A DNA stretch of 63,515 nucleotides, filler included, from Folioceros fuciformis (taxonomy: Eukaryota): assembly GCA_049999805.1 (NCBI GenBank). It is 11 parts of 11 records of this genome, joined end to end, with 100 filler letters (N's around TTAATTAATTAA, not from the genome) between each part and the next. Parts side by side here need not be neighbours in the genome. Positions count along the whole stretch, not along the records: positions 10,710 to 24,825 come from JBNGIO010003404.1; 10 more parts are not named here. One strand, written 5' to 3'. Of the stretch, positions 5,717-61,946 are shown in pieces. The position numbers were made by a program, and so were the translations under genes. The number at the start of each line of letters is the position of its first letter. The stretch's first letter is position 1. Below the pieces are notes generated by a model, which did no database searches, had not been told where the DNA came from, and saw only the letters and a list, made by a program, of their open reading frames with translations.

Positions 5717-5760
5717 NNNNNNNNNNNNNNNNNNNNNNNNNNNNNNNNNNNNNNNNNNNN

Positions 5761-5772
5761 TTAATTAATTAA
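5761..5772. other. Artificial contig-joining linker TTAATTAATTAA flanked by N runs (also at ~10654, 24870, 35732, 45351, 54356, 56080, 57942, 60679, 61891)
   Basis: Identical 12-mer with stops in all six frames, always embedded in about 44 N on each side. Confidence 0.97.
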
Positions 5773-5873
5773 NNNNNNNNNNNNNNNNNNNNNNNNNNNN
5801 NNNNNNNNNNNNNNNNCCTAAGTTTTTTAGTTTGGTCCTATTTGCTATGCTAGCTGGGTCAGGAAAACCAGGC

Positions 5874-10609: not shown

Positions 10610-10709
10610 NNNNNNNNNNNNNNNNNNNNNNNNNNNNNNNNNNNNNNNNNNNNTTAATTAATTAANNNNNNNNNNNNNNNNNNNNNNNNNNNNNNNNNNN
10701 NNNNNNNNN

Positions 10710-10897
10710 ATTCATAGCATTATACTTACTTCCTTCCTAAACATTGTCTTCAGAATTAACTACCTTGTTTGATCATTTACATTCATAGCATTATACTTAC
10801 TTCCTTCCTAAACATTGTCTTCAGAATTAACTACCTTGTTCGATCATTTACATTCATAGCATTATACTTACTTCCTTCCTAAACATTGTCTTCAGAA
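10710..10897. repeat. 71-bp tandem repeat, about 2.7 copies
   Basis: ATTCATAGCATTATACTTAC.. starts at 10710, 10781 and 10852. Confidence 0.9.
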
Positions 10898-11669
10898 TGT
10901 CTACTTTAAGACAATGTCTATCGAATTATAAACACACACCTTTGCCACAATGCATGAAATAGAGAGGTCAGTCCTACTTCTATGGCCACCCCGATAAGAT
11001 ATGTGGCCTTATGAAGNNNNNNNNNNNNNNNNNNNNNNNNNNNNNNNNNNNNNNNNNNNNNNNNNNNNNNNNNNNNNNNNNNNNNNNNNNNNNNNNNNNN
11101 NNNNNNNNNNNNNNNNCACCCCGATAAGATATGTGGCCTTATGAAGTTGCTTAAGGAAAAACTTATCGATGATTTTGCCAAAATAATTAACTTCCCTAAT
11201 CAACAAAGCAAATCTATTGTGATTGACCCATAAGTGTGCTTTATATTTGAGCAAGGACTTTTCAAGAATTATGAAGATTGCTTTAGAATGGCTTTCCTAG
11301 TCAATAAAGCAAATCTATCTTGATTGACTAATTAAGTAAGTGTGCTTTGTATTTAGGCCAGGATTTTTCAAGACTTATGAATGAATACATAGTCAAGGTT
11401 TATCACAGTCACAATAAAGGAGTTCTCCCACTTTCCTTGGTGGTGTTGGCCTTCTTTCTACAACTTGTATCTCATGCTCTACAAATAGACCAATGTAGTC
11501 TTACAAGTATGGAGAGAAGGAGGAGAGAGTCTACTTGCTTCATAAGCACTTGTGATTATAGGCTCTTGGGGGAATGATATTTAACGAGCCTAATCCCTGT
11601 TTGGCCTCAGCCTTCTTATGGTGCTCCTCCTCATTTTTATGGGTACGTAGAATCTTGCTCCCTTTAGCT

Positions 11670-12107
11670 GCCTATTGTAATCTGATAGGTGGATCAGCCA
11701 TATCTTGGAGTAGCAAAAAGGTAACAACTATCTGTCTTTCCTCTATCGAAGCAGAATATGGTGCACTTTCACAGGCAGCCAGAGAAATAATTTGGATTCG
11801 TTCTTTTCTCAAGGGTCTGCGGCATCTCAACCAAGGTGCAACCAAGCTTTGGTGTGACAACCAGTCAGCCATAGCGTTGTCAAGGAATCCAGTTTTTCAT
11901 GCCCGGAGCAAGCATATAGAAATCACGCATCACTTTATCTGGCAAGCTGCTGATATGGGAGAAGTAACTGTGAACTATATTCCTACTGAGGACAATACAG
12001 CAGATCTCTTAACTAAAGCACTAGCCAAGCCCCAGCATCAGAAGCATACAACAGCAGCTGGGTTGTTCCTTGTGCCAGCATCAGCAACTACTGGCAAGGC
12101 ACACTAA
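11670..12107 (+). mobile_element. Ty1/copia RNase H fragment
   Basis: GGSAISWSSKK..LSSIEAEY..CDNQSAIALSRNPVFHARSKHIEI..ADLLTKAL. Confidence 0.9.
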
Positions 12108-13752
12108 GTGTGCAGAACACATGGGCAGCGAATTTTAAGTGTCAAGCACAAACAGCCCAGATTTCAAGTGCAAGGGAATGAGTGGATGCGGGAGGAAGAG
12201 GCTTCACTCACACATAAGCGTCGCATCCTCGTCAGTTCTCTTGGTCTCCTCCACTGGTAAGGTAGCTTGGTCTGAAACTGCAGAGGGGGTGTTTTCACTC
12301 CTGTCTACCATAGAAGCACGCAGCAGAATTTTTGTTCTTTTCCTTTCTGCTGCATCTCTGCTCTCTTTCGAGATATCATACCAGTAATAGTAGTCGTGTG
12401 TCACCGCTCTCCATGGGGAAGGCCATCTTCATCATATCTTTGTACTCTTCCCTTGTCACCCTCAGTCGCCTGTCCAGGTTGGTCTCAGGGAAGGAAACGC
12501 AAGCTGGGGTATGTCAGGCCTGAATCTTGGTAGTGCCTACTGGTATCATGGAATCCAATCTAGTTGCTGCGCCCATCATCACTATCTTCTCCTCTTCAGT
12601 CTTCTCTTTGTTGATGTCTCTGGGGAGGGACTCACAAGCCATCATGTGGAGGAGCCATTGCCTTGGGGTGAACGCAGTAGCTGGAAGCCATCTCCTCCCA
12701 CAGTGGAGGCACTCCAGACCGGTGGTCTGATTCTCCATGATCATGCAGCAGTGGCGATAGGATTCCCACTGCTAGACTAGGTTTCTGCAGCAGGAGTAGG
12801 TGAGGAGCAGGGTGTATGCATTACAGAGTACTTGGGAAAGTTGGACATCGATATGAAAAAGTGCTTTGGTTTCAGTCAAATGGTGCACCAATGATGCCAG
12901 GTAGCAAAAGAGGACTACCAGGACAAAAGAGGTTAATCCATATCTAACGTCCATACACTATCTTCAAGATAAGGATAAGGAAAGAGATGGCCTGAGCATG
13001 GATACGTGGGATCGTGAAGGCTAGGTGTGCATTGCTCAAGAGCTTGATAAGGAGGGGCTCGGATTGGTGACGAAATGGCCTGGTTTGGAGACCCTACCAA
13101 GAGATGTGAGCTGATCATCACTGTAGCAGCGCATCCAAGCATCACCGATGTGTTTGCACATGCGGTCAGCGGGAAAATGGTTTTACAGTCCTAATGCCTA
13201 ATGTTGCCAACTGCTAGAAGGGCCATGGGCAATTTCAAGGCTGTCATGAGAAGGGATGGACGATACTCAAGCAGGAATGCAATGACGGATGCGAAGCATC
13301 TCACTGTGCAGGACCCTTACGTTTCGGAGAGAAGGCGAGATGACGGAACAATGCAACTGCGATCGTGTATATGTCGATTTCAGAGCGTTTGGACATGGAA
13401 ATAGCACACTACTATCTACAGAGACAGTGGTCAGGACACGAACTCCGTAGGAGCCTCTTCCAGACGACTGTCCGGCAAAAGAACTACAACAACAACAAAG
13501 CAGGTGGGTTGCAGGAATGCATGTGGCGCTGAGAAAGACGATCTCTTCTATATTGAAGAATAACCTGCCTACTGCATCAAAGAGACCTTTATGAGTCTGG
13601 GTCACACTGTGGAGTGGAGGAAGATTGCAACGGGCTGAATACATATGGCGCATGAATTCTTCTTCAGTCGAGTTGGAAAAGACCTTCGAAACCGTCCAAG
13701 AAGGATGAGTCACACGAGCTTATGGTACAACGTCAAACAACGAGCCCACGGA

Positions 13753-14889
13753 TCAGCTAGTAGACTTGAAGGGGATAGCACGGATGACGAACTGATGGTA
13801 GGCGGCTGCCAAGGTTGCTCCTAGGAGAGGCCCAACCCAGAACACCCACTGCAAGAACCCAGACGTGTTCAGTCAATCAATGCTCACGTGCTTTAGCTCT
13901 GCCATGTTACACATGTAAAGAAGAAAGTGCTTACATGATCATGCCATGCATGGGACTGGTTGTAGATCACTGCAGCTCCAAAGCTCCGAGCAGGGTTGAT
14001 TCCGGTACCAGTGATGGGAATGGTAGCCAAGTGCACCAGGAACACGGCGAAGCCAATGGGCAAGGGTGCCAGAATCTGGGAACATAACAAGGACAGGTTC
14101 AGCCAGATGTAGTGCGGACATGGCAGCTGTTAACAGGAAGACTACGGAGAAGTGCACAACATACCGGGACGTGAGAGTCTCGTGCATTCCTTTTCGCATC
14201 AGTTGCAGAGAAGACGGTGTAGACTAGGACAAATGTGCCCACAATTTCGGCTCCCAGTCCCGAGCCCTTGGTGTAGCCGTGAGCAACGGTGTTGGCTCCT
14301 CCTCCGTTTTGGTTGTAGAAGGACTTTTGCCAGGCCTTCACCAAGCCAGTTCCAGCAATGGCTCCCAGGCTCTGAGCCGCAATGTAGATCACTGCCCGGG
14401 GTACTGTCAGCTTCCTGGCCAGGAACAGGCCGAACGTGACAGCAGGATTGATGTGCCCTCCTGCCAAGTGGAAGCAAGAAGCTCGCATGAGCAGCGGCAA
14501 GGAAGGAACAAGATGACGTCACGAGGAGGACGGCAAAGGCTGGACATGATACCGGAAATTCCAGCAGTGGAGTAGACGAGGGCGAAGATTGTTCCACCAA
14601 AGGCCCAGGCAATTCCCTTGATTCCCACTCCAGAGCCGGGGACGAGTTTCTCCGAGTGAGCGTTCCCGATCACTGTGTTGATGGTGATGTAGAGGAAGAT
14701 GAGGGAGGCCACGAACTCGGCAATGGCGGCCCTCCACAGTCCCCAGGACACCAGCTCCGCCCCGTCGAAGAGCGGAGCAGGGGGAGGCTCCTTGTAATCC
14801 TTCTCGTTGTGGCTAGACGCGGTTCCCAGCGGCACCCGCTCGCTGAACTTGGTGGCTCCCAGCTGCACATCCTCCTCCTTGTCAGCCAT
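13753..14889 (-). CDS. PIP1: Plasma membrane intrinsic protein PIP1 (aquaporin), 4 exons
   Basis: [105 protein letters not shown]. Two NPA motifs, F-H-T-R filter, standard PIP intron positions. Confidence 0.97.
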
Positions 14890-17815
14890 GGCAACCAAAA
14901 TCCTCTCTGTTTTTGCTTTTTCTTAGCAACCAGGAAGCACAAGACACAAATCCACACAACGGAGAAGATGGAGGAGGAACGGGAATGACGAGAGGAGCAG
15001 GCCGAAGCCCAGAGATAAGGGAGGTGGAGCGGGGAGGACTGACAGAGCAGTGGAGAGAGGGTGTACGATGGTGGTGCAGAAGGTTGCTGGCCTGTGCACA
15101 TAAAAGGAGGAGCGGGGTGGGGGAGACAGGCGGGGCCAGAGCATCACCGCCCACAAGCGGGCCCGATACACCATAGCCGCACCTCGCTCCGTGCTCGGGT
15201 TGCGTGACACAGCCAGCTGCTGCCTGCAACGCCTCTCAGGCACACAGGCTTTACAAGCTATCGGATTGCTTGCCTGCTAATCTCACCATTACAGATGAGG
15301 TCTGGACAGAGCACGACAAGATAGGTGGGCCCTGCTGTCTGTCGTGCACCCTGCAAGCGGTGCGCGTCCGGGCCCGCGGCTCCTCCATCACATTCTGCCC
15401 GGCATCATGAATATCTGATGTACTTGGCCCCTCCCACTACATTAATGGCGGAGAACCGCATGAACACGGGCACTCTGATCCCTCCTACGCCTGATTTCTG
15501 CAACCCTGGGTTCGGGGTTCTGGGACATGGGTCCTGGACCTTGAAGCTGGAAGCACGATGGTGAGTTCCAGCCCATACCCGTCCTCGCATGTTCCGGCAA
15601 TGAGAGAACTGCCCCCGCCAGGTGCCAACCCAGGTGCGTGTGACAGTGCAATACTGGTGATGGAATCTGTTCCCCGGTTGTGGTTGTGAAAGCGCCCGCT
15701 TCGTTTGAAATGGACGGTGTCAGGGCCCGCCTTCGCCCAACGGTTATCTCCTTGGTGATGAGACCCGAGGTCAGTAGAGCAGCCAGCAAGCCTCCGCATC
15801 CGGTGCGGCCCCCACAGTCGAACAGCCCAGTGCCACATGGATTTGCGTCCGCTGCCGGCCCCATGTCTCGCCTCACTCTCACTCATGCTCTCACTTTGCT
15901 CGTCCATTTTCCTGCTTGCAAGTCTAGACGACACACTGTCAGATCACCCTAAAATCGTATCCTACTGAAAGCTTTGAGGCTGTGAAAGCATAGCTTTCGG
16001 CGGCCAATATTGCAGTCGGCCTGCACATGACAATCCCTGTATGTACTTCAGAGGTCACTGTAACGTGTTACATGTTGCTCGAGGATTGAGGATGCTTTGG
16101 TAGGCCACCTGCTTGGAGCACAGGATTTCGATTGTGTGGAACTTTTTACTTGATTAGATTAACGGACCTGCGGTTGCTCTTGGATTCCATGCACGTAGCC
16201 AAGAGCCTGCTGCCCGCTCACAGAGCAAGCAGAACGGACAAAAAGTAGGCCTGTTGGCCCTGTTTCTGTTGGCAAGCAGCACAAGAAAACAGGTGCTGTG
16301 AACTTGGCCACAGCTGGACTCCGCCAGAAACTGGTTCCTGTACGTACAATGTGGCGTCCTGTGATGAGAGAGCTTGTACCAGTTCCTCATTGAACAACTT
16401 TGTACGGACTGTGGTCTGCGCTCTGGAACGTTTAGGACTGCACACAACATCACGTTATTTTATCGGTTCTGGCACTTACATCGAGCTCCCATGAAACGGT
16501 CTGAACAGCTTTTGAGTGTGGGCACAGTAGATGGTTGCTCATGCAGTACAGTAGTTTCTTACTTACTATTCAGGGCCAGGGAGCTCCGAGTCCCGACAAG
16601 ACCTGCCTCCAACCACAGCTTTCCAACGTAGCTGTATGTAGTAGCAGTGGCGTAACAACGTGTGGCATCCTTGATGCTTATCCTCTCGTGAAGTATCTCA
16701 GTGTCCTCCCTCTAGTCTCTCCTCAGGAAGGTCTTCCTACGTGCAACTTCTGCCACAAGTCTACTCTCAGTAAGGAAGAGAGCTGGCTGTTGCATCCTGC
16801 GAGTTCGGAACCCCTCAACGCTGCAACATGTAAGAAGTGGTCTTCAGTGCTAGATCTTCGTGTAGAACAGCAACTGCATTTTGGACGACAAAGAACCAGT
16901 CTGCGCTTGCCGGTCGCCAACCATCCTCCACTTAGTCTGACCTTTGACCTCCTGCTGTGCACGGCCTAATTTTGCAAGCTCTCCGCATTGGAGCTGCCGC
17001 TGCCATTTGCGGCAAATTGGTCCATATTCCCTCACTTGCACCTCCTGCTGTCTAGGACCCTAACCTGTGGAGTCCATTTCTGTAATCATGCTTGCGCAGA
17101 GGCATGGCCTGGACAAGGTTGAGAGTACGTGGTGTTCTCTTCATTCATACTCACTCGCATCATGCACGCGCAGCCCAGTCCATTCGCCATACGGCGCTTG
17201 CCCGACAGGGGAAGACTGTCGATGAGGAAAGGAATTATGTTTGTCCCAAACTCAAGGAATGAAAGTATAAAAGTTGGGGGTTACATACACGTATCCGCAC
17301 GAGTGCGAAGGGTGTAGAATCTCTCACGGCTGCTTGCAAGTTGTTGCACAAGGACCCTAGTCTACTCGCGGGTAGTTGCATGAACATTTGGAGTATGAAG
17401 GGTCCTGCAGCTTGAACATCAAGCGGTGTGCTGGAGACTTCCAACCAGCTCTTACTGCATGATGTTTGAGGAGACGTTCTGGTGCGCATCACTGTCCATG
17501 GTGCTACGGCTGGCCGGTATTTGCGCGTCCGGCGATGAAAAGCCATACGGGACCGGCTCGATGAACTGCGTCTGAAGGAGCTCACTAGAAACCATCGAAA
17601 AAGCCTCCAGCAGGGGAGAAAAGGTGAGGCTTAAGCTTTCGTCTTGTCGCCTTGAGAGTGGCTCCGGAGATTCGCAGTTCACATTGCGTCTTGATAGCTG
17701 CAGAGTTGAGTAACCTGATTTTGATCGCAGGGTTTACGTTTCCAAGGAGGACAGTAGCAGAGCAGCTCCAAGGACCACAACCCGTGCGGGTGATGCCAGC
17801 GATCTAGGTCAGGAG

Positions 17816-19179
17816 ATGGAAGGAGACGATACGTCAATCTCAGCTATGTTCGATGACGAAATGGATGATTCCGGTGGACTGGATGATTCTGGCAGTACGT
17901 CACCTGCACGTACAAACAAGTTTCCTGACCAGATCCTCGATGAAGCAATCAAAGAAAACAAGCTCATGGTTGCTATGAGTAGGAGACGCATGAATGGAGC
18001 ACCAGCTGGAAGCGGAAAGAGGAAGCGTGGCAGGATGAACATGGCCAAGTAAGGTTTTCTTCCTCAAATCATTCATGTACATTCAGATGCGTTTGGTGAC
18101 CCTTTCTGCAGTGGCTTGGTAGGATCGAATGGTCTCTAGGCCTGCAAGTCTGTCTAAGACACGCTTTAGGGCTGGGAAACCCTAATCTCTTTCGCAGGCG
18201 AGATCAACTGTTCCGTCAATGTCACTTATTCCCCGTGCATCCTTATTCATCTGATCAGGTTTGTGAAGGATACATGCTATCATCTAAAAGAAAAGAAGCC
18301 AGGACTTGTGAAGGCAGCAGTTGAGAAGCTTGGTTTCTCTGTGTTTCAAGAGCTCATCAAGGAGGTAAGATTCAATAACAACTCTAAAGTTAATCAGTCA
18401 TAAAGAAAGGATGTTTGCCAGTTTAGGGTGGCTTCGTTCCAGATAGGTCAACGTTTGTGTCACAAAATATCCTTCACTAGCGGGCACATTGAGATCTGCA
18501 GGTCAATGCAATAGAGAGCTGTGGCGGTCAATTCACAATCGATGGAACACGGCGGCGCACTCCAGGTGGTGTCCTTTGGAACATACTCAAGGCCCGGGTG
18601 AGACCAGAGGTGTATAAGCACATTATGTCCGAGGGAAAGGCTGCAGAGGTAAACTTGCAGCCAATGGAGATTTTCCGCCTTCAAGATCAAGTCTAGCTTC
18701 AGTTTTCGGTTAGTTTCACTCTGATGATTTGGTCTAACGTGTTTGAATTATCTACTCTCCAGAAGCGGGCAAAACCAATCCCGACGTGTCAGACTCCTGC
18801 AGCAAAAGCGAATGCAAAACGACGGCTTGTTAAGGCATACGTGCCTGTGGCTGCAAGAAACAAGGCAGAGGATGGAGAGATAATTCCTGCGAGGCTTGAC
18901 GGTATTTCGGCCTCGAAGGATGCACAGAATGCGTGGATTGCAGGAATAAAAGCAAGAGTTTTGGTGGATAAGTTAGATTCCCTCAAGAGTCACGAGGGCA
19001 GTGGAGGTGAAAGCCAGGAGTCCCCGCCGAAGAAGGTGCCTATATCAGAGAGACTTCGATTCCCTGTCAAGTATGACGATGTGTTGGATGAATCTGGCGG
19101 TGGTGATTCCAGGAAATCTGAATATGCCTCCTTGGTGGCAACGGCGAATACTGATGAGAAAACGGAAATGGATGAATAA
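17816..19179 (+). CDS. PHAX: PHAX (phosphorylated adapter RNA export protein); exons 17816-18048, 18259-18364, 18502-18648, 18763-19179
   Basis: Spliced FVKDTCYHLKEKK..LGFSVFQELIKE|VNAIESCGGQFTIDGTRRRTPGGVLWNILKAR matches the PHAX RNA-binding domain. The start codon is uncertain. Confidence 0.85.
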
Positions 19180-20329
19180 GCACAGACGTCGTGCGAGGTA
19201 TGGTAGTGTACACAGCCAGCCTTGGTGAGAGACAATTCTTTGGATCGGAAGGGGAGTACTTGGCGACGGCAAAGGTCAACCTAGACCATTTCCATGAGGA
19301 GGTGAAATGCCCAGTTTTGCGTCTCTGACCGGGCTCCTCCAGTTTCTTTCTCCCGGAAGGACCTGACAGCCATTACTCAGTGGCATTCGAGGGCAGCAGA
19401 CGTGCAAGCCGTGCTCTTCCCACCGTCCAGAGTTGCATTCGCTAACTTGGGATGTTGGTTTGCCAGTTAGTTTATTCACGACTTTTAAGAGTCTGAAGTT
19501 AACGTTGTTGTGTTGTCGTCTAACATAGTTTGACCAGCTGTCATTTTTTTTGTCTTAAGTACAAGCTGTTCGAACTTCGACCTGTGGCTGAATTCGAGGA
19601 TGTCGGACGCAAAACGACGGCCTATCTCCTCCTGACACAGACCACCGTCGATTGTATTCGAGTGAGGGCTACTGTTGGCAGAGTCATATCCATCCTTCAT
19701 TGGAGTCGTTATCTGTCGCTATCGATCAACGGGCTGTTGGAATTGAAAGTGAGTGGCTGGGTTTTTGGATTGTGAAAGCTTGAAGTGCTGGTAGCCTGCT
19801 AGGCTCACGCTGTTAGTCGGTTATGGGTCAGGATGCGATGAGGTGGAGGGAGTGAGTGACCAGGTCGCACAGTGCTCTTGGTATGGCTAGCAGCGTCTAG
19901 CAGCGTCAAACCGCCTGCAGCAAGCAAGGTGTGATTTTCGGCCCATGTTGCTTGTAACTGAAGGCACAGTACTGTCCATGTTGCCTCTGGCTGAAGGCCA
20001 CAGTTCTCTTATCCCAGTTTAGAACGAAAGTCTGTGCTGCCATGATCAGATGAGATCTTGGGTTAGTTACGACTAGAGTCCCTATCCAACAAAAGACATC
20101 AAGGGTAGAGCCTGATGGACCCGCACGGTAGAGCAATATCATACATATGCAGGAAGCGTGTATGCCCACTCCTCGGGAGAGGAAGAAAAACGATGATGTA
20201 TAACAAGTTGTCATCGCCTGGTAGAAGAAACGTGATCGAGGTAAGATGTCTTACAAAGTATAATAACTGTAATCGTGGAGTGGTCTACTTATGCCCAACT
20301 GCCCACTTTTTTTACGACGTAGCTACTTG

Positions 20330-21600
20330 CGTCCAGCACAAACAAACATATTCCCGTTGAGATTCATCCTTAGGTTCTTTTTTTCCCTCATTCCTGCGTC
20401 TCGTCATCCATCTTCTTGCAAGAAGTAGAGTCTAATAACTTTTTTTTTCCAGTCGCCATCTATGTTGGTCCTCAACATATCTTGTTCAGACCATAGATCT
20501 AAATCTCATATGGACATCACATAATTGTGGAGAAAGACATAGATCTATGTGAAAAGCATCTGCGTGGAGTGGAGGGAAGATATGAAGGGTAAAATTATGC
20601 AAGACACCTTTGTCCAGGCAGGAGCTCTGAGACACCACACTCAATGTTCAAGAACCCTGGTTAGCATTGCTTGCCCACCATCATCCATGCTCTCTAGTTG
20701 GTTCAACCAACAGTAGAGGAATCGAGAATGTGAGAAGGCTAGATAGGTTTTATGTTCTCTCAAGTTAGTTGTGCTTTGCTTAGAATATAAAATTGTGGTG
20801 GGTACAATTCTTTCGAATCATCACCCCATCAACTTGTTGCTAGCCCTTCATGTGGGTGCTCAAAGGCTGCAAATGAGCAAGACATTGTTCAGGATGAATA
20901 CTTGTTCCTAGTGGAGGAAGGAGTCTATGAACAAATTAAGTAGGTATGGTAGGAGGATATGGTAGGAGGATGAATAGAGGGAGGACTCGGCGATCTAGCA
21001 ATTGATAGTTGCAAATAGCAAAGCCTCTAGGTTTTTCAAGGGGTTAGGAGCTAAACAGAAGAAAGAGCAGCGACAATAGGACAACTTTTTACGAGATGAG
21101 GTGAGGCATCTTCAAAGTCTATGTGATGAGCAAGACTTATTCATTGCTCATTGGCCAAGATAGAAGAAGATTAGAGCCATAGAGTGGTTCCAGCGAGCAA
21201 AGGTCTTATGGGTTAAAGAAGGTGACTACCCTTCCTAGGTTTTCTTTGATAAGGTGGCTATCAATCATCATAGATCCAGAATCCCACCTCTCTTGGACAA
21301 GCAAGGTATTATCCAAGATTCCTTGGCAGGGTTGAAGGAACTAATAGTTTGTTTGTATGTTGCAATCTTCACTAGCCTGGGGAAGAGCTTCGCTTGAGAA
21401 TCACTCTGGATGTCGACTTCTGGCAAATTCCATGCTAAGGGTGCTATTGCATAGGGCAAAAAGTGTTGGAAGAAGCTGGACACAATTAGGGAGGAGTTTG
21501 GTGTTCCAACCCGTTATGTCAAAATCATTTTTAGTTGGCTACAACGTGGTATGGATAAAGGAGTGGGACAAGTTCTAAAGACACAAGATGTGATGGGAGT
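20330..21600 (+). mobile_element. Heavily decayed L1-like LINE ORF2 fragment (end of endonuclease to linker)
   Basis: SDH remnant at ~20488 and EWFQRAKVLWVKEGDYPS*FF at ~21182-21245, with many stops. Confidence 0.6.
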
Positions 21601-21879
21601 GAAAATGTGGGGAGCTTATACATTGGAAGGTAGGGAGGGTGAGGAAGACCTAGATGAGGATCTAGCTTTGCCAAAATTTGACAAAGAAGTGTACAGTTTT
21701 CCACAATGGTGACCATAAAGTTATATAGGGTAGGTTCCTTAGAAGGTTTTCTAGATAGCCAAGGTCGAGAGGATGGGGTGTTTGGTGGCGAGGGAATAGG
21801 GCCAATTACGGTTCTATCTTGGTTGCCATGAAATGAAAGATGGCTCATTGAGGAGGAGGTGCCTAAAGAACTTAGTCCT

Positions 21880-23909
21880 TCATCGAACAAGTGCGCTATA
21901 TACACGACGAGCTGAAGATTGTTACTGAGCAGAGAATGTCAATCACTATGACATGGAAGTATGATTTGTACAGAATGCTCAGCGTCATTGGAGATGCCAG
22001 CGATAGGGAAGAGAAGCAACGTCTTGTCGATCAAAAGACTACTGTAGTTTTGTGCATCGCTAGTGTGCCCCCCCACGTCTGGGAAAAGGTCGATGAAATT
22101 TTTAGGCTATAGGAAAGAGGAGAACTACCAGAGCAAGGGAACATGAAGAAGGCAAGCAAACGGGGAAAATCGAGGAGAGGGCATGCAGACGTGAAACCAG
22201 CTGCTCGAGACCCCAACTTAATGATTAAGCCAATGCATGCTATTGCTTGGAAAGTTTTCCAGGGCATGCCATCGGGGGAAGTAGGCCATTGTATTATGAT
22301 GTCCGCTCTAGAGAAAGTGGTGGAGGGAGAACTAATAGTAAGCGGTATGAAGACGTGGATAACCAAGGCCAAGAACCTTAATATCATTCAGACTACTTTC
22401 TGTTCAGGATTGAAATGTGCTTCGTTTGCGGAAGTGGAGCTGGAGTATCCCAAGCACTTGAGCCCGGAAGGCATATCGAAATTTCAGCCAATATTTGATC
22501 ATATTGTAAGTGAATACTGAGGACAATTTTCATCTGTTGATATGGCGCGCACTAGTGCGCGCCTGGTGTGATGAAAAGCTTACCAAATCAATGTCCTATT
22601 GTGTAGACTCTTTGACAGGCCTAGGAATACAAGGAGAAAGTCATTCTAGATAGTTTCAAGGAGCATATCAATGCAACACGTAACTGGAAGAGAGTCAAAG
22701 ATTTACAGCGTGAGCTAAGCAGAAGAGGACATTGACGCAAAGCTCTCAACATTCCAAGTCCCAAGCAACAAACAAAAAGTTAAGTACCAAATCATAATAG
22801 GAGATTTGAGGGAGATGGCAGGGTACTTGGGCAAGCGGGAGTACAAGCTACTAATTTTGGATTTGCCAAGAGGGAATTATGTTGATCCATGGGATAAGGA
22901 GATGACACCAGATGACCTGGAGAAGATAATGGAAGGATATTTCAAAGTTACTGATTGTCAAACTTTTCGGGTCGTCTGCATGCACGGATTAGACCAAATG
23001 CAGATCGTTTGTGATGGGTTGTGCAAGTGGTGTGAAAAGGGCGGCATGTACACAATGGTCTGGGAAAAAGACAACGCGATAGCGGAGGAGGGGCTATACA
23101 AAAACTGTGAGTACATGACAGTAGGCCATGATGTGCACCCGGGCAATGTCGATATTTGGAAGAGTAGTGCTCTCAGTAATAGTGCGGAAAAGGAGATTGG
23201 AGCGATGCCTGGCATCATCAAGCACAGCACCATCAAAAAACTTTTGAACATGTCAAACGACGGACGCAATGTCAATCCTTATCAGGAACCATTAGGATTG
23301 ATGGTTCTTCTTTGTGATCTATTCACCGACAGGGGGGAATGGGTAATCGATGGATGTGCAGGAAGCAGGAGCAGAGTTCTTGTAGCACTGCTTGAGGGCA
23401 AAAATTGTATTGCTACCGACCAAGAACAACGATATACAATCTTCATCGAGCAGTGAATAATTGGTCATAGAGTGTTCCCATCCGATGAGAAGGACTTGAC
23501 TACGAAGCCTCACAGCCGAGGACATTCACTGTTTTTCACTAGAGAGCTTTCAAGTGGAAGGTCTGTTAATCAGCGTGCGCAACAACTACAAATGGTGGAG
23601 GGAAGGACCACTCCGCTGGACCTCCTTGATCTCAATCAAACCCAAGGACACGCAAAGAAGAAGGCGAAGACAAAAGGGAAAGAAACTGAAAAGCAACTAG
23701 GCAGTGGTTTGGCTCAAGTTCCCGACCAACGCGCGGATGACGAAACCTGGGATGTCGAGCAACTTGAAATGCTTTCAAGTGTAGCGTCTTCAAGCCAAGA
23801 GGCGGCAGCACTTGAGGGCACAAATATTGCACCTGGCCAAGTGGAGAGCAAAGACGAGATCACTGTCCCCATGACCCAAAGACAAGAGTCCCAGCAGTAT
23901 GAAGGGTAG
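21880..23909 (+). pseudogene. Decayed gene: unknown N-terminal domain + beta-class N4-cytosine/N6-adenine DNA methyltransferase (N6_N4_Mtase-like) + low-complexity tail; probable intron 22506-22606
   Basis: Motifs in beta-class order: YQIIIGDLRE, LLILDLPRG..WD (DPPY position), MVWEK, CEYMTVG, NPYQEP (HPTQKP position), FTDRGEWVIDGCAGSRS (SAM-binding), ALLEGKNCIATD. ORF pieces at 21891, 22143, 22806 and 23472 are separated by TAG/TGA stops and one frameshift. Confidence 0.8.
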
Positions 23910-24576
23910 GAAGGTCAATTGATATGTGTGACAGTAGAATAAAGGTATGGCGCACACAAAAGCGTGCCATACCGAACAATTTGCAAATCACATATTCGTC
24001 TTTTCGAAGAAGTAGTTCACGGTCGCCTTGTTCTTGAGCATTAGGGCCGTAGGGTTTTGTGCGAAAGCAAAAACAAAGGAAGGGTTTGAGGAGAGACCTG
24101 ATTTATTTCAAATGCTGTTACCATAGATGTTTGTCATTGGATGGTCAGACTATAGAGGAGCAACCAACATAAACCGCTGGCTTCAAGGATGAGGCTGCCC
24201 GAGCGTCAACAATGTTCTGCTATCAAATGCCTTTGGACGTCTGATGGGATCCCCAAAAGGTCAAGCTTTTGATTTGGTGTTTCTTTTAGGCCTACTTGCC
24301 GGTGGAGGACAGATGGGATGGGCTTTTGGTTGCGGGTGGTGAGGGAGTTTGTAGAACGTGTAGTGCTTGTGCTTCAAATACAAGTCAACATCTATTCTTC
24401 CATTATGACTATGCCCAAGTGATCTGGAAGGAGGTGGGTACATAGCTCAAACACCTCCCTAAGAGGTCAATGTGACGCTGCCAGAACAGGCTACCCTCTT
24501 TGGGTTAGATGAGTCATCAGACAAACTTCTTTTCCAATATCAATGGTACTGGCTCTTGTGAAGCTTATGCTTACCT

Positions 24577-24825
24577 AACCTTTGGCTAAATTGGATGGCA
24601 ATGGTGTATGGGGGGAAGGACCTAATACCCATCAAATCTTTGCTTTGGTGGACTTGGGAACAACTTTTGATTGCAACCTTTGGCTAAATTGGTCGGCAAT
24701 GGTGTATGGGGGGGAGGACCTAATGCCCATCAAATCTTTACTTTGGTGGACTTGGGAACAACTTTTGATTGCAACCTTTGGCTAAATTGGACGGCAATGG
24801 TGTATGGGGGGGAGGACCTAATGCC
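24577..24825. repeat. 98-bp tandem repeat, at least 2.5 copies, running into the contig end
   Basis: AACCTTTGGCTAAATTGG starts at 24577, 24675 and 24773. Confidence 0.92.
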
Positions 24826-24925
24826 NNNNNNNNNNNNNNNNNNNNNNNNNNNNNNNNNNNNNNNNNNNNTTAATTAATTAANNNNNNNNNNNNNNNNNNN
24901 NNNNNNNNNNNNNNNNNNNNNNNNN

Positions 24926-34765: not shown

Positions 34766-35987
34766 AGTTCCTACTCAAATCTCCCACAGCGGCCGCATCA
34801 CATTCCGGCCCACAAGGCCGTGCACAAATTCATACAACTGCCATCGGTGATCATCAAACCCCTACCATAATTCATGCACGAAGTGGTAGCGAATGATAAC
34901 GCAAACAAATGCTTTAGCTCGTCCTTTTCCACTATGAGAACTATAATAAATATAGTCGGACTTCCCCGGATTGGAAATTCTATGAAAGGGACCTGTCCAT
35001 TAGTGGACGTTCCGTCCCAATCCATATTTATTATATACAAAATAGGTTTAAATATTAATATAATATTTTAACACTTTTGAAATGGACAAGAAGGGGCTAG
35101 TCTGATGATTTGGTGCCTCTTAGTGTTATTGCTTTCATCCTGGGCTCTTTTTTTTTTATAATAAAATTATATATATATATATAGATATTAATACACAAAT
35201 CTCAAAGATGTTATCTAATAATAGTAGAGAAAAAATTTGAGGATAGGCAAGAGTTGGTCTTTTTCTCATAGGGTTTAACAAGGTAGTAGCAAGTAGAATG
35301 TGTGCCAAGGGTTCGAGAAATCCTAAATGCTCAAAACCCAAGATGAAACATTAGTTGTTGTCATGAAGAATCTGACAGAAATACTTACGTGTAGTTTAGA
35401 TTAGTGAGATTGGAGTAATTACATTGAGGATGCACTGTACATAGCTCTTTGCTTCAAGATGTGCAAGGATTGTGGATGATCTTGATTTCCACTATAGGAC
35501 ATTGATGACAATAGCATCTTCTATGTGAAGAAGAATAACAACATAGAAGAAAAATGAGGTGAGAAGTGAAAAGAGTGTTAAATCTAATTTGGTAGCTGCC
35601 ATGCATCTTTCTAAAGTGAAGATGCCTTGCATGCTTCAGGCTGTCACACTTGAAGATGCATGCTAGTTCATGCTGTCACATTGAAGGNNNNNNNNNNNNN
35701 NNNNNNNNNNNNNNNNNNNNNNNNNNNNNNNTTAATTAATTAANNNNNNNNNNNNNNNNNNNNNNNNNNNNNNNNNNNNNNNNNNNNCTTCAAATACAAA
35801 TTTAGCTCCATAATCTTCGAGCAAGTCAAAATTAAAACTTCTTAATGCTTCTTTCCCTTCGTACCTCAACAGAGGTTTTGCATTATCCAAGAGTTTTAAA
35901 AACTTAGTGTTGAACTCTACACAAGTAATAGAAGCAAGAATGTTTTCAAGCAAAGAGAAGTGAGAGTATTCCAAAGCCTTTATTATC

Positions 35988-45248: not shown

Positions 45249-45448
45249 GATTGAACGGTACGGTGGCGGGTAAGGATTGAACGGCACGGTGGCGGGTAAG
45301 GATTGANNNNNNNNNNNNNNNNNNNNNNNNNNNNNNNNNNNNNNNNNNNNTTAATTAATTAANNNNNNNNNNNNNNNNNNNNNNNNNNNNNNNNNNNNNN
45401 NNNNNNATGGTGGCGGTTAAGGATTGAACGGTATGGTGGCGGTTAAGT
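45249..45448. repeat. 26-bp tandem repeat (GATTGAACGGTACGGTGGCGGGTAAG) on both sides of a linker
   Basis: Copies at 45249, 45275 and 45301 (partial), and again at 45408-45448. Confidence 0.85.
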
Positions 45449-53708: not shown

Positions 53709-54415
53709 GGAGTGGGTGGGTGAGAGGGATGGAAGTGGATGAGAGTCGTGAGGCTTGGAGACGCAAATGGGGATATATGGAAGGCGTTGCAACCGGCGTG
53801 GAACGGGCACAGCCCCGATTTTCTTATCCCCGATCGCGGATCGTGGATCGCGACGCGAGGAGGAAGGAGCACGGGGACGGCCCGTTCCGTTACCAATGCC
53901 GTTCACGTTCCCGTGCCCTGGCCCCTGCCTGGCCCAATGCCGCTGTCCGGTCCCGTTCCTTCCAGCCGGTGATCAGCACGCTGTGCGCCGCGATTTCCTG
54001 GACAAATGCACTAAAAATTGCGACGAAAATGGGTTTGGCCATCCATCCGTGCGGGCCCGGGGGACACCCTCATTCGCTGCCCGCCTCAAGTGCCATCCTC
54101 CACCACACTTCTTATCCCCCCACCTCGGAGCATACAAGCCTACAGCGCGCAGTGCAGCGAAGCGCTGCTACTGTTCTCTCCTCTCCTCTTTTCTGCCCTC
54201 CTCTCCACTCCTCTGATTTGCTTCTGCACCCTGGTGGATTGGGCCGTCTCCCTCTCCCCCGTCCACCTCTCCTCATCCGCTTCCTCATTGTCGTGCGCGC
54301 CTTCCCTGCACNNNNNNNNNNNNNNNNNNNNNNNNNNNNNNNNNNNNNNNNNNNNTTAATTAATTAANNNNNNNNNNNNNNNNNNNNNNNNNNNNNNNNN
54401 NNNNNNNNNNNCAAC

Positions 54416-55960: not shown

Positions 55961-56135
55961 TGTGAACCTCCAAAGTTTGGGGTAGTAGTTTGTTTTGGTT
56001 GAAAAAAGGTTAATAGTGGTATGGTTTGGTTTTCTNNNNNNNNNNNNNNNNNNNNNNNNNNNNNNNNNNNNNNNNNNNNTTAATTAATTAANNNNNNNNN
56101 NNNNNNNNNNNNNNNNNNNNNNNNNNNNNNNNNNN

Positions 56136-57897: not shown

Positions 57898-58179
57898 NNN
57901 NNNNNNNNNNNNNNNNNNNNNNNNNNNNNNNNNNNNNNNNNTTAATTAATTAANNNNNNNNNNNNNNNNNNNNNNNNNNNNNNNNNNNNNNNNNNNNAGC
58001 TACATTACTTTATTTAGCACACTGAATGAATAAATACAAGATGATTGTTTCTTATATAGGTGCTAGTCACACCACTTCGCTTTTAACCTAACTCGACTGA
58101 TCGATGACTAGGGTAATGGGTTACTTAATCAAACCCTATTCTTAACACTTCTAGCACCTAGCCTTCAACAGTCCTCATT

Positions 58180-60634: not shown

Positions 60635-61339
60635 NNNNNNNNNNNNNNNNNNNNNNNNNNNNNNNNNNNNNNNNNNNNTTAATTAATTAANNNNNNNNNN
60701 NNNNNNNNNNNNNNNNNNNNNNNNNNNNNNNNNNACCTCTTAGACTATCCAGAGACTTCGAAGGATGCCTGATCTTCAAAGGTCTGCGGACGCCGCCTCT
60801 TCCTTGCTGGATGGTCGCCCGCTAAGTCTTCCCCTGCAACTGTTCACCCTTGGTGGCTGAGCGAGCCTCTAGGGAAGGAGCATGAGCAATGGGAAAGATA
60901 GAGAAGAGGTGGGAAGGAGTGGGATCAGCAGCCGGAACCTGGCCTGAAAACGGTAGCTTATTCAGCGGGATCAGCTCCCAGCCGAAATGGTTCCTCAGCC
61001 ATGGAAGACTGACCCTCGGGTGCTGGGGAAGGCCCTGAACTAAGAGGAAAAGAAAGCAGGTGAANNNNNNNNNNNNNNNNNNNNNNNNNNNNNNNNNNNN
61101 NNNNNNNNNNNNNNNNNNNNNNNNNNNNNNNNNNNNNNNNNNNNNNNNNNNNNNNNNNNNNNNNACTGACCCTAGGGTGCTGGGGAAGGCCCTGAACTAG
61201 GAGGAAAAGAAAGCAGGTGAAACGGAGTTGAAATGGAATTTCTGGAATTAAATCCAGAAAAATAGGGAAGAAAATAGGAAAGGGGAAATTAGGAAAATAA
61301 AAAGAAAAGGAATACGGGGGTACGAAAGGAATACGGGAA

Positions 61340-61846: not shown

Positions 61847-61946
61847 NNNNNNNNNNNNNNNNNNNNNNNNNNNNNNNNNNNNNNNNNNNNTTAATTAATT
61901 AANNNNNNNNNNNNNNNNNNNNNNNNNNNNNNNNNNNNNNNNNNNN

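Follow-up and report, generated by a model that had tools for sequence, protein, structure and literature searches.

In beta-class amino-methyltransferases of the PF01555 type, the catalytic motif IV precedes the loop that binds S-adenosylmethionine (SAM), and the consensus of motif IV is (D/N/S)-P-P-(Y/F/W). The type includes N6-adenine enzymes (CcrM, M.RsrI, M.BceJIV, M.MboIIA) and N4-cytosine enzymes (M.PvuII, bdelloid N4CMT), and the PF01555-type domain has switched repeatedly between N6-methyladenine (6mA) and N4-methylcytosine (4mC) (PMC8885841). Amino-type DNA methyltransferases are considered to be few in land plants, where only the Marchantia sperm 4mC enzyme has been studied, and a survey of such enzymes assigns few N6-adenine methylases to land plants (Iyer, Zhang and Aravind, 2016, PMC4738411). 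Here we describe a gene remnant at positions 21876-23909 of a 63,515-nucleotide stretch of DNA from Folioceros fuciformis (GCA_049999805.1; the window). We consider it likely that this remnant is a non-functional, 5'-truncated relic of a eukaryotic gene encoding a ParB/Noc-like module and a beta-class methyltransferase, with a conserved phase-0 intron between the two. It points to a separate family, in which a ParB-type DNA-binding or clamp module is combined with a beta-class methylase.

Among the closest described systems are those of red algae. According to part of a preprint on Bostrychia (bioRxiv 10.1101/2025.02.11.637652), Plavaka, Zisupton and Mutator elements carry PAG2, a PF01555 methylase with a SET domain, and PAG3, a ParB-like module with a 2-oxoglutarate (2OG) oxygenase, and such cargo moves between Plavaka/EnSpm, Zisupton, Mutator and Fanzor elements. 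On that partial account, methylase-plus-ParB cargo of eukaryotic DNA transposons is therefore of an already known kind. The family described here, compared with PAG2 and PAG3 by description only, is similar in having a PF01555 methylase and a ParB-like module as accessory genes, and in one lineage or more it adjoins a transposase-like gene, a parallel to the accessory genes of the red-algal giant transposons. In contrast to PAG2 and PAG3, as far as that account describes them, the ParB-like module is attached to the methylase itself, and neither a SET nor a 2OG domain was seen. The lineage is streptophyte (Ginkgo, Folioceros fuciformis) rather than red-algal, and the transposase-like gene encodes a DUF7869 protein. 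A ParB-type module is likewise paired with an amino-methyltransferase at ParB-terminase loci of phages and plasmids and in fusions of ParB with methylases, according to the survey cited above (PMC4738411); the family described here is not listed in the part of that survey used. Our literature searches, which did not extend to Repbase or supplements, turned up no streptophyte ParB-PF01555 fusion.

With the described beta-class enzymes, the family has in common the motif order, the fold (Foldseek E 8.5e-15 to 1e-10 for a model of the relative P0003), the QKP motif and the GSG loop. Unlike these enzymes, it reads D-[ILV]-P-[Y/H/R]-G at motif IV, with R at the aromatic position in the subclade of the relic, and it belongs to eukaryotes and has a candidate intron, patches rich in K and R, an acidic tail and a ParB-like module that is fused or linked. 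The Marchantia polymorpha proteins MpDN4MT1a/b, which read TSPPY and are encoded by tandem, sperm-expressed host genes (10.1101/2021.02.12.428880, in part), resemble it in being prokaryote-derived beta-class amino-methyltransferases of a land plant. They differ in the first motif position, which is D in the family, and no ParB module is mentioned for MpDN4MT1 in the part of that source used. A kinship with the Marchantia 4mC enzymes, which the original prediction named among the rare eukaryotic examples, is thus not supported by the comparison of motifs, to which our comparison was confined: the relic reads DLPRG rather than TSPPY, and the best structural matches of its relative are N6-adenine enzymes.

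Should the intact members prove active, plant genomes would have in them a second source of 6mA or 4mC, and the catalytic motif, whose base-stacking position is Y, H or R, would be the subject of a natural experiment. The relic itself is of value because it points to the family and marks past activity of an element. We regard the family behind it as moderately interesting, and its intact relatives, some of them beside a transposase-like gene, may merit study.

A beta-class methyltransferase core with eukaryote-like relatives

The original prediction read the segment 22780-23456 as a methyltransferase with the elements YQIIIGD, LLILDLPRGNYVDPWD, MVWEK, NPYQEP, GEWVIDGCAGSRS and NCIATD, all of which are present in the forward frame 22719-23456 (Table 1). 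As predicted, the catalytic D-L-P-R-G comes before the SAM-loop DGCAGSRS, which is the permuted order of the beta class. A tail of about 150 residues was also correctly recognized; it corresponds to the open stretch 23457-23909, and the tails of the relatives are comparable.

The Pfam profile PF01555 matches the open reading frame (ORF) of the relic with E 8.7e-5 (23.0 bits), at profile positions 134-216 only, corresponding to the SAM-binding part. Nine of the ten best relatives scanned pass the cut-off of the profile (30-65.7 bits), and P0006 reaches 25.0 bits. Matches of the relic ORF to NCBIfam (PRK13699, E 0.093) and to PDB sequences (M.RsrI, E 0.12) are marginal. A search of 1.84 billion representative proteins with phmmer returned 65 relatives at E<=1e-3, nine of them at E<=1e-10 (best 1.6e-27), and when relatives were aligned to the window with tblastn, the methyltransferase locus was the sole match (best 1.6e-36). 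A word-indexed protein search with the relic ORF gave nothing at near or longer lengths, and with the family alignment it gave seven proteins and no new named member. Scanning of metagenomes yielded 56 loci, of which 34 (L003-L036) are clear family members; a metagenome scan with P0017 alone yielded nothing. Both the phmmer relatives and the metagenome loci include intact genes, the existence of which had been anticipated.

The match to the Rossmann-type methyltransferase fold was obtained with the relative P0003 and not with the broken relic. An AlphaFold2 (AF2) model of P0003, made from a 37-sequence alignment, has a predicted local distance difference test (pLDDT) score of 81.8, and its best matches in the PDB are CcrM (6pbd, E 8.5e-15), M.RsrI, M.BceJIV, M1.HpyAVI and M.MboIIA, with E 1e-12 to 1e-13 for M.RsrI and M.MboIIA. 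The N4-cytosine enzymes rank lower, M.PvuII being 22nd and bdelloid N4CMT 25th. The relatives and the fold of P0003 agree with the earlier assignment of the locus as a beta-class PF01555-type amino-methyltransferase of prokaryotic or phage ancestry in eukaryotic nuclear DNA. We infer that the intact members are DNA methyltransferases, and N6-adenine is a likelier target than N4-cytosine because of the D at the first motif position and these structural neighbours.

With their patches rich in K and R and their acidic tails of low complexity, the relatives have a eukaryotic appearance, and the sole relative with a species name is a Ginkgo biloba gene model in EukProt (P0005). The 44 rows of the tree that we constructed were picked by hand from 75 proteins, with three locus ORFs added. 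The relic and Ginkgo P0005 are found in a eukaryote-like clade of 27 rows, supported by a Shimodaira-Hasegawa-like approximate likelihood ratio test (SH-aLRT) value of 99 on a stem of 1.38, and separate from phage-like methylases that read CDLPYGTT...HPTQKP. The nearest rows to the relic are P0001-P0003, with weaker support (SH-aLRT 82). Throughout the family, motif IV reads as given above, with the D and the second P invariant in 37 sequences; the consensus (D/N/S)-P-P-(Y/F/W) is found neither in the relic and its closest relatives nor in the wider family. Outside the subclade of the relic, the motif is DIPYG or DVPYG in some subclades, DIPHG in Ginkgo and in 16 metagenome loci of low GC, and DIPRG in others.

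The intact relatives are, to judge from their substitutions, under purifying selection: their methyltransferase and ParB ORFs have nonsynonymous divergence (dN) of 0.17-0.32 and saturated synonymous divergence (dS). At several low-GC loci the ParB part is in many pieces, so that those loci may be pseudogenes too. The large low-GC subgroup (L010-L036) reads D-I-P-H-G, as does the Ginkgo protein. Locus L034 (7159-7947, minus strand) reads D-I-P-R-G and also has, by eye, a retrotransposon gag-like ORF.

A foreign origin of the locus, whether by contamination with bacterial or phage DNA, by recent horizontal transfer or by insertion of a giant-virus fragment, is very improbable. It would fit with the prokaryotic or phage origin of the PF01555 fold, with the protein-atlas neighbours of P0002, which are phage methylase clusters, and with the nearest non-eukaryotic relatives, which are phage-type methylases with D-L-P-Y-G. 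However, the 301 phage records that match P0017 do so in the methyltransferase part alone and with 24-29% identity; none of the 301 covers at least 80%, and none has both modules. Likewise, IMG/VR yielded two weak loci, which match in the SAM motif only. The relic lies inside the eukaryote-like clade on its long stem, and shares a candidate GT..AG intron with relatives. In addition, DNA contigs of two sequencing runs, X1 (record 1, 19500-22026) and X2 (record 10, 19964-22887), extend without differences from a neighbouring gene, which has a spliced, probably RNA-derived contig, into the relic, which argues against contamination or a chimeric join.

The ParB/Noc-like module and the candidate intron that follows it

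Upstream of the core, a domain of more than 200 residues had been predicted, and a 210-codon exon-like stretch at 21876-22505 confirms it. The stretch consists of open segments of 78 and 135 codons in the same frame, split by a TAG, and contains the helices on the helix-turn-helix (HTH) side, followed by a linker rich in K and R and by a helical bundle at the end. A profile made from the modules that precede the methyltransferase in nine relatives matches 22113-22517 with E 4.3e-11 (model positions 239-353) and, collinearly, 21876-22109 with E 0.2 (model 159-227); an earlier profile of four sequences gave only collinear, non-significant matches. The ParB N-domain (model 1-158) was not found upstream of 21876, where the best match has E 0.7 (21832-21912). 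A match of this domain made by eye at 21455-21712 was unsupported and has been dropped.

The long relatives P0005, P0017 and P0057 have the module, with a GGxH-type box, ahead of the methyltransferase. This box of the ParB/Srx N-domain reads VIGGNHS or VLGGGHT in relatives and was not found in the relic. Among the 34 related loci, a ParB-like module is located upstream on the same strand in 22 and on the opposite strand in L035, the other 11 being short contigs. The module of L004 matches HTH_ParB with E 8.6e-4, below the Pfam cut-off, and its AF2 model (pLDDT 72.5) retrieves ParB (6sdk, 4.6e-5), Noc, KorB, Spo0J and sulfiredoxin in Foldseek. By these comparisons, the upstream domain is the rear half of a ParB/Noc-like module, and a ParB-like module followed by a methyltransferase is the architecture of the family. 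The original prediction recognized neither this identity of the domain nor the lack of the front half of the gene.

Two further arrangements were observed among the relatives. P0057 (1825 residues) is one continuous ORF with a tandem pair of complete ParB-like plus methyltransferase units, between which there is low-complexity sequence rich in A/P and in E/D. In L004 (138-1235) and L006 (403-1779), the ParB-like gene is preceded on its own strand by a conserved ORF of 366-459 residues (KYMKKKW.VRNGQD...). This ORF, for which Pfam gave no family at thresholds up to E<=10, may represent a third gene of the ParB-methyltransferase unit.

The module and the core are separated by a candidate intron. 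The original prediction placed a spliceosomal intron at 22506-22606; the intron type and the donor at 22506 stand, whereas the acceptor has been revised. Use of the acceptor at 22606 leads into a stop (ACT CTT TGA), and therefore the acceptor CCTAG at 22624 is preferred. Removal of 22506-22624 is in phase 0 and joins ...FDHI (frame 3) to EYKEKVILDSFKEHINATRNWK; this peptide aligns to the helix preceding the methyltransferase core in P0002 and P0006. With tblastn, the frame-2 segment 22649-22747 matches residues 27-58 of P0002 and 31-55 of P0006. The frame-2 stretch as a whole, EYKEKVILDSFKEHINATRNWKRVKDLQRELSRRGH, terminates at TGA 22733-22735 because of a frameshift. Candidate GT..AG introns are present at the aligned position in L004 (485 nucleotides), L005 (287) and L006 (352), beginning with GTAAGA, GTACAT and GTAATA, respectively, after the last aligned codon of the module, and ending with CAG before the K/R-rich start of the methyltransferase. 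The phase-0 position is thus common to relatives that are only ~28% identical in protein sequence.

State of the Folioceros copy

The copy in the window has two premature stops and a frameshift (Table 1). Both stops had been explained as transitions, and the relatives agree: they have W at the position of the TAG at 22110 (TGG>TAG) and R at that of the TGA at 23454 (CGA>TGA), beyond which their alignments continue through to 23486-23564. The frameshift, predicted near 22725, can be confined to 22719-22732, because only there do the open stretches of frames 2 and 3 overlap. We rejected a 13-nucleotide GT..AG segment at 22710-22722 as an intron that would explain the change of frame, as it is too short. 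Two substitutions are specific to the relic, E for the near-invariant K of NPYQKP (K conserved in at least 90%) and R for the second G of the G-S-G SAM loop (G-S/T-G-x in the family), so that both the QKP motif and the intact SAM loop, which the relatives keep, are lost.

The earlier evidence for a dead copy thus holds for the stops, the frameshift and the GSRS loop, to which the K to E change in NPYQKP is added, but not for DLPR, which had been regarded as a decayed DPPY. The closest intact relatives, P0001-P0003, as well as the fragment P0026, also have D-L-P-R-G, and R at the fourth motif position is therefore a character of the subclade and not a sign of decay. With two in-frame stops, one frameshift, two motif substitutions and an undetected front half, the relic is, judged by its sequence, a pseudogene. 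This copy is without function, and ordinary debris.

It is very improbable that the gene is still functional, with lesions that are assembly errors or are bypassed by alternative splicing or recoding. Each lesion involves a single base, and the frame is otherwise open for 245, 210 and 150 codons. However, contigs of two runs have identical bases at the three lesions, without any difference, although these runs come from one sample and so exclude neither allelic variation nor systematic error. Moreover, two near-invariant motif residues are changed, and the ParB N-domain and the start of the gene are undetectable. Rescue by reverse U-to-C editing was considered and rejected: such editing is organellar whereas the locus is nuclear, and of the two stops it would mend only the TGA and not the TAG.

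A truncated fragment and the link of some relatives to a transposase-like gene

The window is made up of 11 contigs (1-63515), joined by ten N44-TTAATTAATTAA-N44 linkers and with additional 100-N scaffold gaps, and therefore arguments from neighbourhood are valid only inside one piece. The relic is on the piece 10710-24825. On this piece, ~21.85-24.04 kb is a fragment of ~2.2 kb with gene-like CpG content, located between CpG-poor or repeated DNA. The observed/expected (o/e) ratio of CpG changes at ~21850 from 0.19-0.40 to 0.6-0.8, and this step coincides with the start of protein homology. Together with the undetectable N-domain, the step makes the relic look truncated rather than merely decayed. 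In the upstream block (20400-21850) we detected no Pfam family, no ParB N-domain and no repeat inside the window. On the downstream side, the matches of several run contigs begin at 24044 or 24074, before which these contigs are unlike the window, and therefore a dispersed repeat starts there. The CpG depletion of the upstream block resembles that of a copia-like stretch at 11117-13000 (o/e 0.29).

The original prediction described the gene as embedded in plant transposon DNA. This is correct only in a weaker sense, for the immediate, CpG-poor or repeated flanks; the copia and gypsy genes of the window, however, are mostly on contigs other than that of the relic, which has an aquaporin gene and a gene that is probably transcribed and spliced.

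A link to mobile elements is found among the relatives. Seven related contigs come from one metagenome (GC ~0.48), and in four of the seven (L018, L005, L007 and L004) the methyltransferase gene is followed tail-to-tail by a DUF7869 ORF (E 8.9e-50). The DUF7869 protein has a D..D..(D/E)-like pattern, read by eye, and its ORF has a dN/dS ratio of 0.08-0.11; the copies are old, yet under constraint. Its nearest protein-atlas clusters are eukaryote-only, have 52-203 members, and are commonest in Streptophyta and Mollusca. From the motif pattern and these multi-member eukaryotic clusters we infer that DUF7869 may be a transposase.

Two options had been offered for the locus: a decayed copy of a methyltransferase-carrying mobile element family, or a domesticated 4mC/6mA writer. 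We find the former to be the better one, because intact relatives adjoin the transposase-like gene in one set of metagenome contigs. A broken or internally deleted element, or else a captured piece of a gene, is the most likely source of the relic. In the mechanism that we envisage, the ParB-like module would bind or clamp particular DNA and bring the methylase there. In at least one lineage, the ParB-methyltransferase genes would travel as cargo of a DNA transposon, with the DUF7869 protein as transposase, and the methylase could mark the DNA of the element itself, so as to time its transposition or to counter silencing by the host. We speculate, with more doubt than confidence, that streptophytes (Ginkgo, Folioceros fuciformis and the sources of the related contigs) have a clade of ParB-methyltransferase fusions, so far undescribed, that resides on DUF7869-type transposons and writes 6mA (or 4mC) at DNA chosen by the module, as a self-marking system of land plants encoded by transposons. 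In this view, the base-stacking residue of the catalytic motif became Y, H or R in different members, and the relic is a fossil of such an element.

Alternatively, the relic could be no transposon debris but what is left of a host gene that had been domesticated as a writer of 6mA or 4mC, with a role like that of DN4MT1 in Marchantia, and was then lost in this lineage. We consider this unlikely, although several observations fit it. The gene-like CpG content of the fragment (0.6-0.8) differs from that of its CpG-poor flanks, and the relic is single-copy in the window, on a gene-bearing contig and 1.5 kb from the 3' end of the neighbouring gene, for which there is the spliced, probably RNA-derived contig mentioned above. 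The intron position is conserved, a Ginkgo gene model exists, and the relatives are under strong purifying selection; such selection is, however, equally expected for the genes of a transposon. Against a host gene, several diverged intact copies adjoin the DUF7869 gene in one metagenome, the whole unit is doubled in tandem in P0057, and the family motif is unlike the TSPPY of MpDN4MT1. Furthermore, the front half is absent exactly where the base composition changes, which suggests a fragment rather than a gene in its place.

A number of findings weigh against the relic being a methyltransferase gene left by such an element. The transposase-like link is present in four of the 34 related loci, all from one metagenome, and no relative of P0070 is found in L011, L014, L016 and L034, which belong to other subgroups and have 2.6-4.6 kb of downstream sequence. 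The window, too, is without a DUF7869 gene, and the link is therefore shown for one lineage only. The seven metagenome contigs could represent several species rather than the repeat family of one genome. DUF7869 matches no transposase family in Pfam, nor any other Pfam family even at E<=10, and no PDB sequence; no literature was found under that name. At the relic there is no transposase, the best tblastn match of P0070 (E 0.061) being on another contig, and neither terminal repeats nor a target-site duplication were convincing between 20000 and 24825, the contig ending ~900 bp past the relic, which limits the view of element ends; the related contigs are too short to include such ends. Short imperfect repeat pairs around the relic were considered as element termini and judged to be due to chance. 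The relic ORF scores below the gathering cut-off of PF01555 (23.0 versus 26.7 bits), and R or H in place of the aromatic residue in whole subclades could mean altered chemistry or no catalysis. Finally, every junction of the locus is reproduced by contigs of two runs, but these are from one sample, probably that of the assembly itself, and are not independent.

Features of the window and neighbouring sequences

Positions of the features of the relic and of its surroundings are listed in Table 1.

Table 1. Features of the methyltransferase relic, of its contig and of the window (positions along the whole window).
Feature	Positions	Strand	Details
Exon-like stretch, rear half of ParB/Noc-like module	21876-22505	+	frame 3, 210 codons, one stop
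Premature stop TAG	22110-22112	+	relatives W (IF.MW motif); one transition from TGG
Candidate spliceosomal intron	22506-22624	+	119 nucleotides, GTAAGT...CCTAG, phase 0
Frame-2 stretch EYKEKVILDSFKEHINATRNWKRVKDLQRELSRRGH	22625-22732	+	helix preceding methyltransferase core in relatives
Frameshift zone	22719-22732	+	1-nucleotide loss (or 2-nucleotide gain), frame 2 to frame 3
Beta-class amino-methyltransferase core	22719-23453	+	frame 3, 245 codons
Motif IV D-L-P-R-G	22860-22874	+	
NPYQEP	23274-23291	+	family K, here E, at 23286-23288
Motif I DGCAGSRS	23349-23372	+	family G, here R, at 23367-23369
Premature stop TGA	23454-23456	+	relatives R; one CpG transition from CGA
Tail	23457-23909	+	150 codons, K-rich patch and acidic low-complexity sequence, TAG at 23907-23909
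CpG-poor upstream block	20400-21850		CpG o/e 0.19-0.40, 1.45 kb, between 3' end of neighbouring gene and relic
Downstream repeated DNA	24044-24825		run-contig matches and repeat finders
98-bp satellite	24577-24825 (contig end)		2.5 copies, 96% matches; repeat finders
3' end of neighbouring gene	19500-20356	+	physically continuous with the relic
MIP aquaporin gene	14099-14922	-	PF00230, E 2.9e-32 and 5.3e-12, at least 2 exons, on the contig of the relic
Linkers	5717-5816, 10610-10709, 24826-24925, 35688-35787, 45307-45406		
Linkers, continued	54312-54411, 56036-56135, 57898-57997, 60635-60734, 61847-61946		

The neighbouring gene that ends at 20356 is probably transcribed and spliced. A contig of run X4, the only run guessed to be RNA, skips 19749-19831, a segment with GT..AG ends, and stops at 20356; this run covers the neighbouring gene alone and is uninformative on expression of the relic. 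No second copy of 20357-24576 was found elsewhere in the window, and no Rfam family was found on the contig of the relic.

Contigs of run X3, from the same sample as the DNA runs, cover 23878-24108 and differ from the window only by C>T changes, at 16 listed sites, as is typical of a library of the bisulfite type, and methylation data for the locus may therefore exist.

Two GC-rich hairpins have the motif TATGGCGC[GA]CAC in common. One is located inside the candidate intron (22544-22563; DNA folding energy -11.8 kcal/mol, z -5.1), and the other 37 nucleotides past the stop codon (23944-23973; -8.7 kcal/mol, z -3.8). The motif occurs three times in the window, compared with 0.53 occurrences expected.

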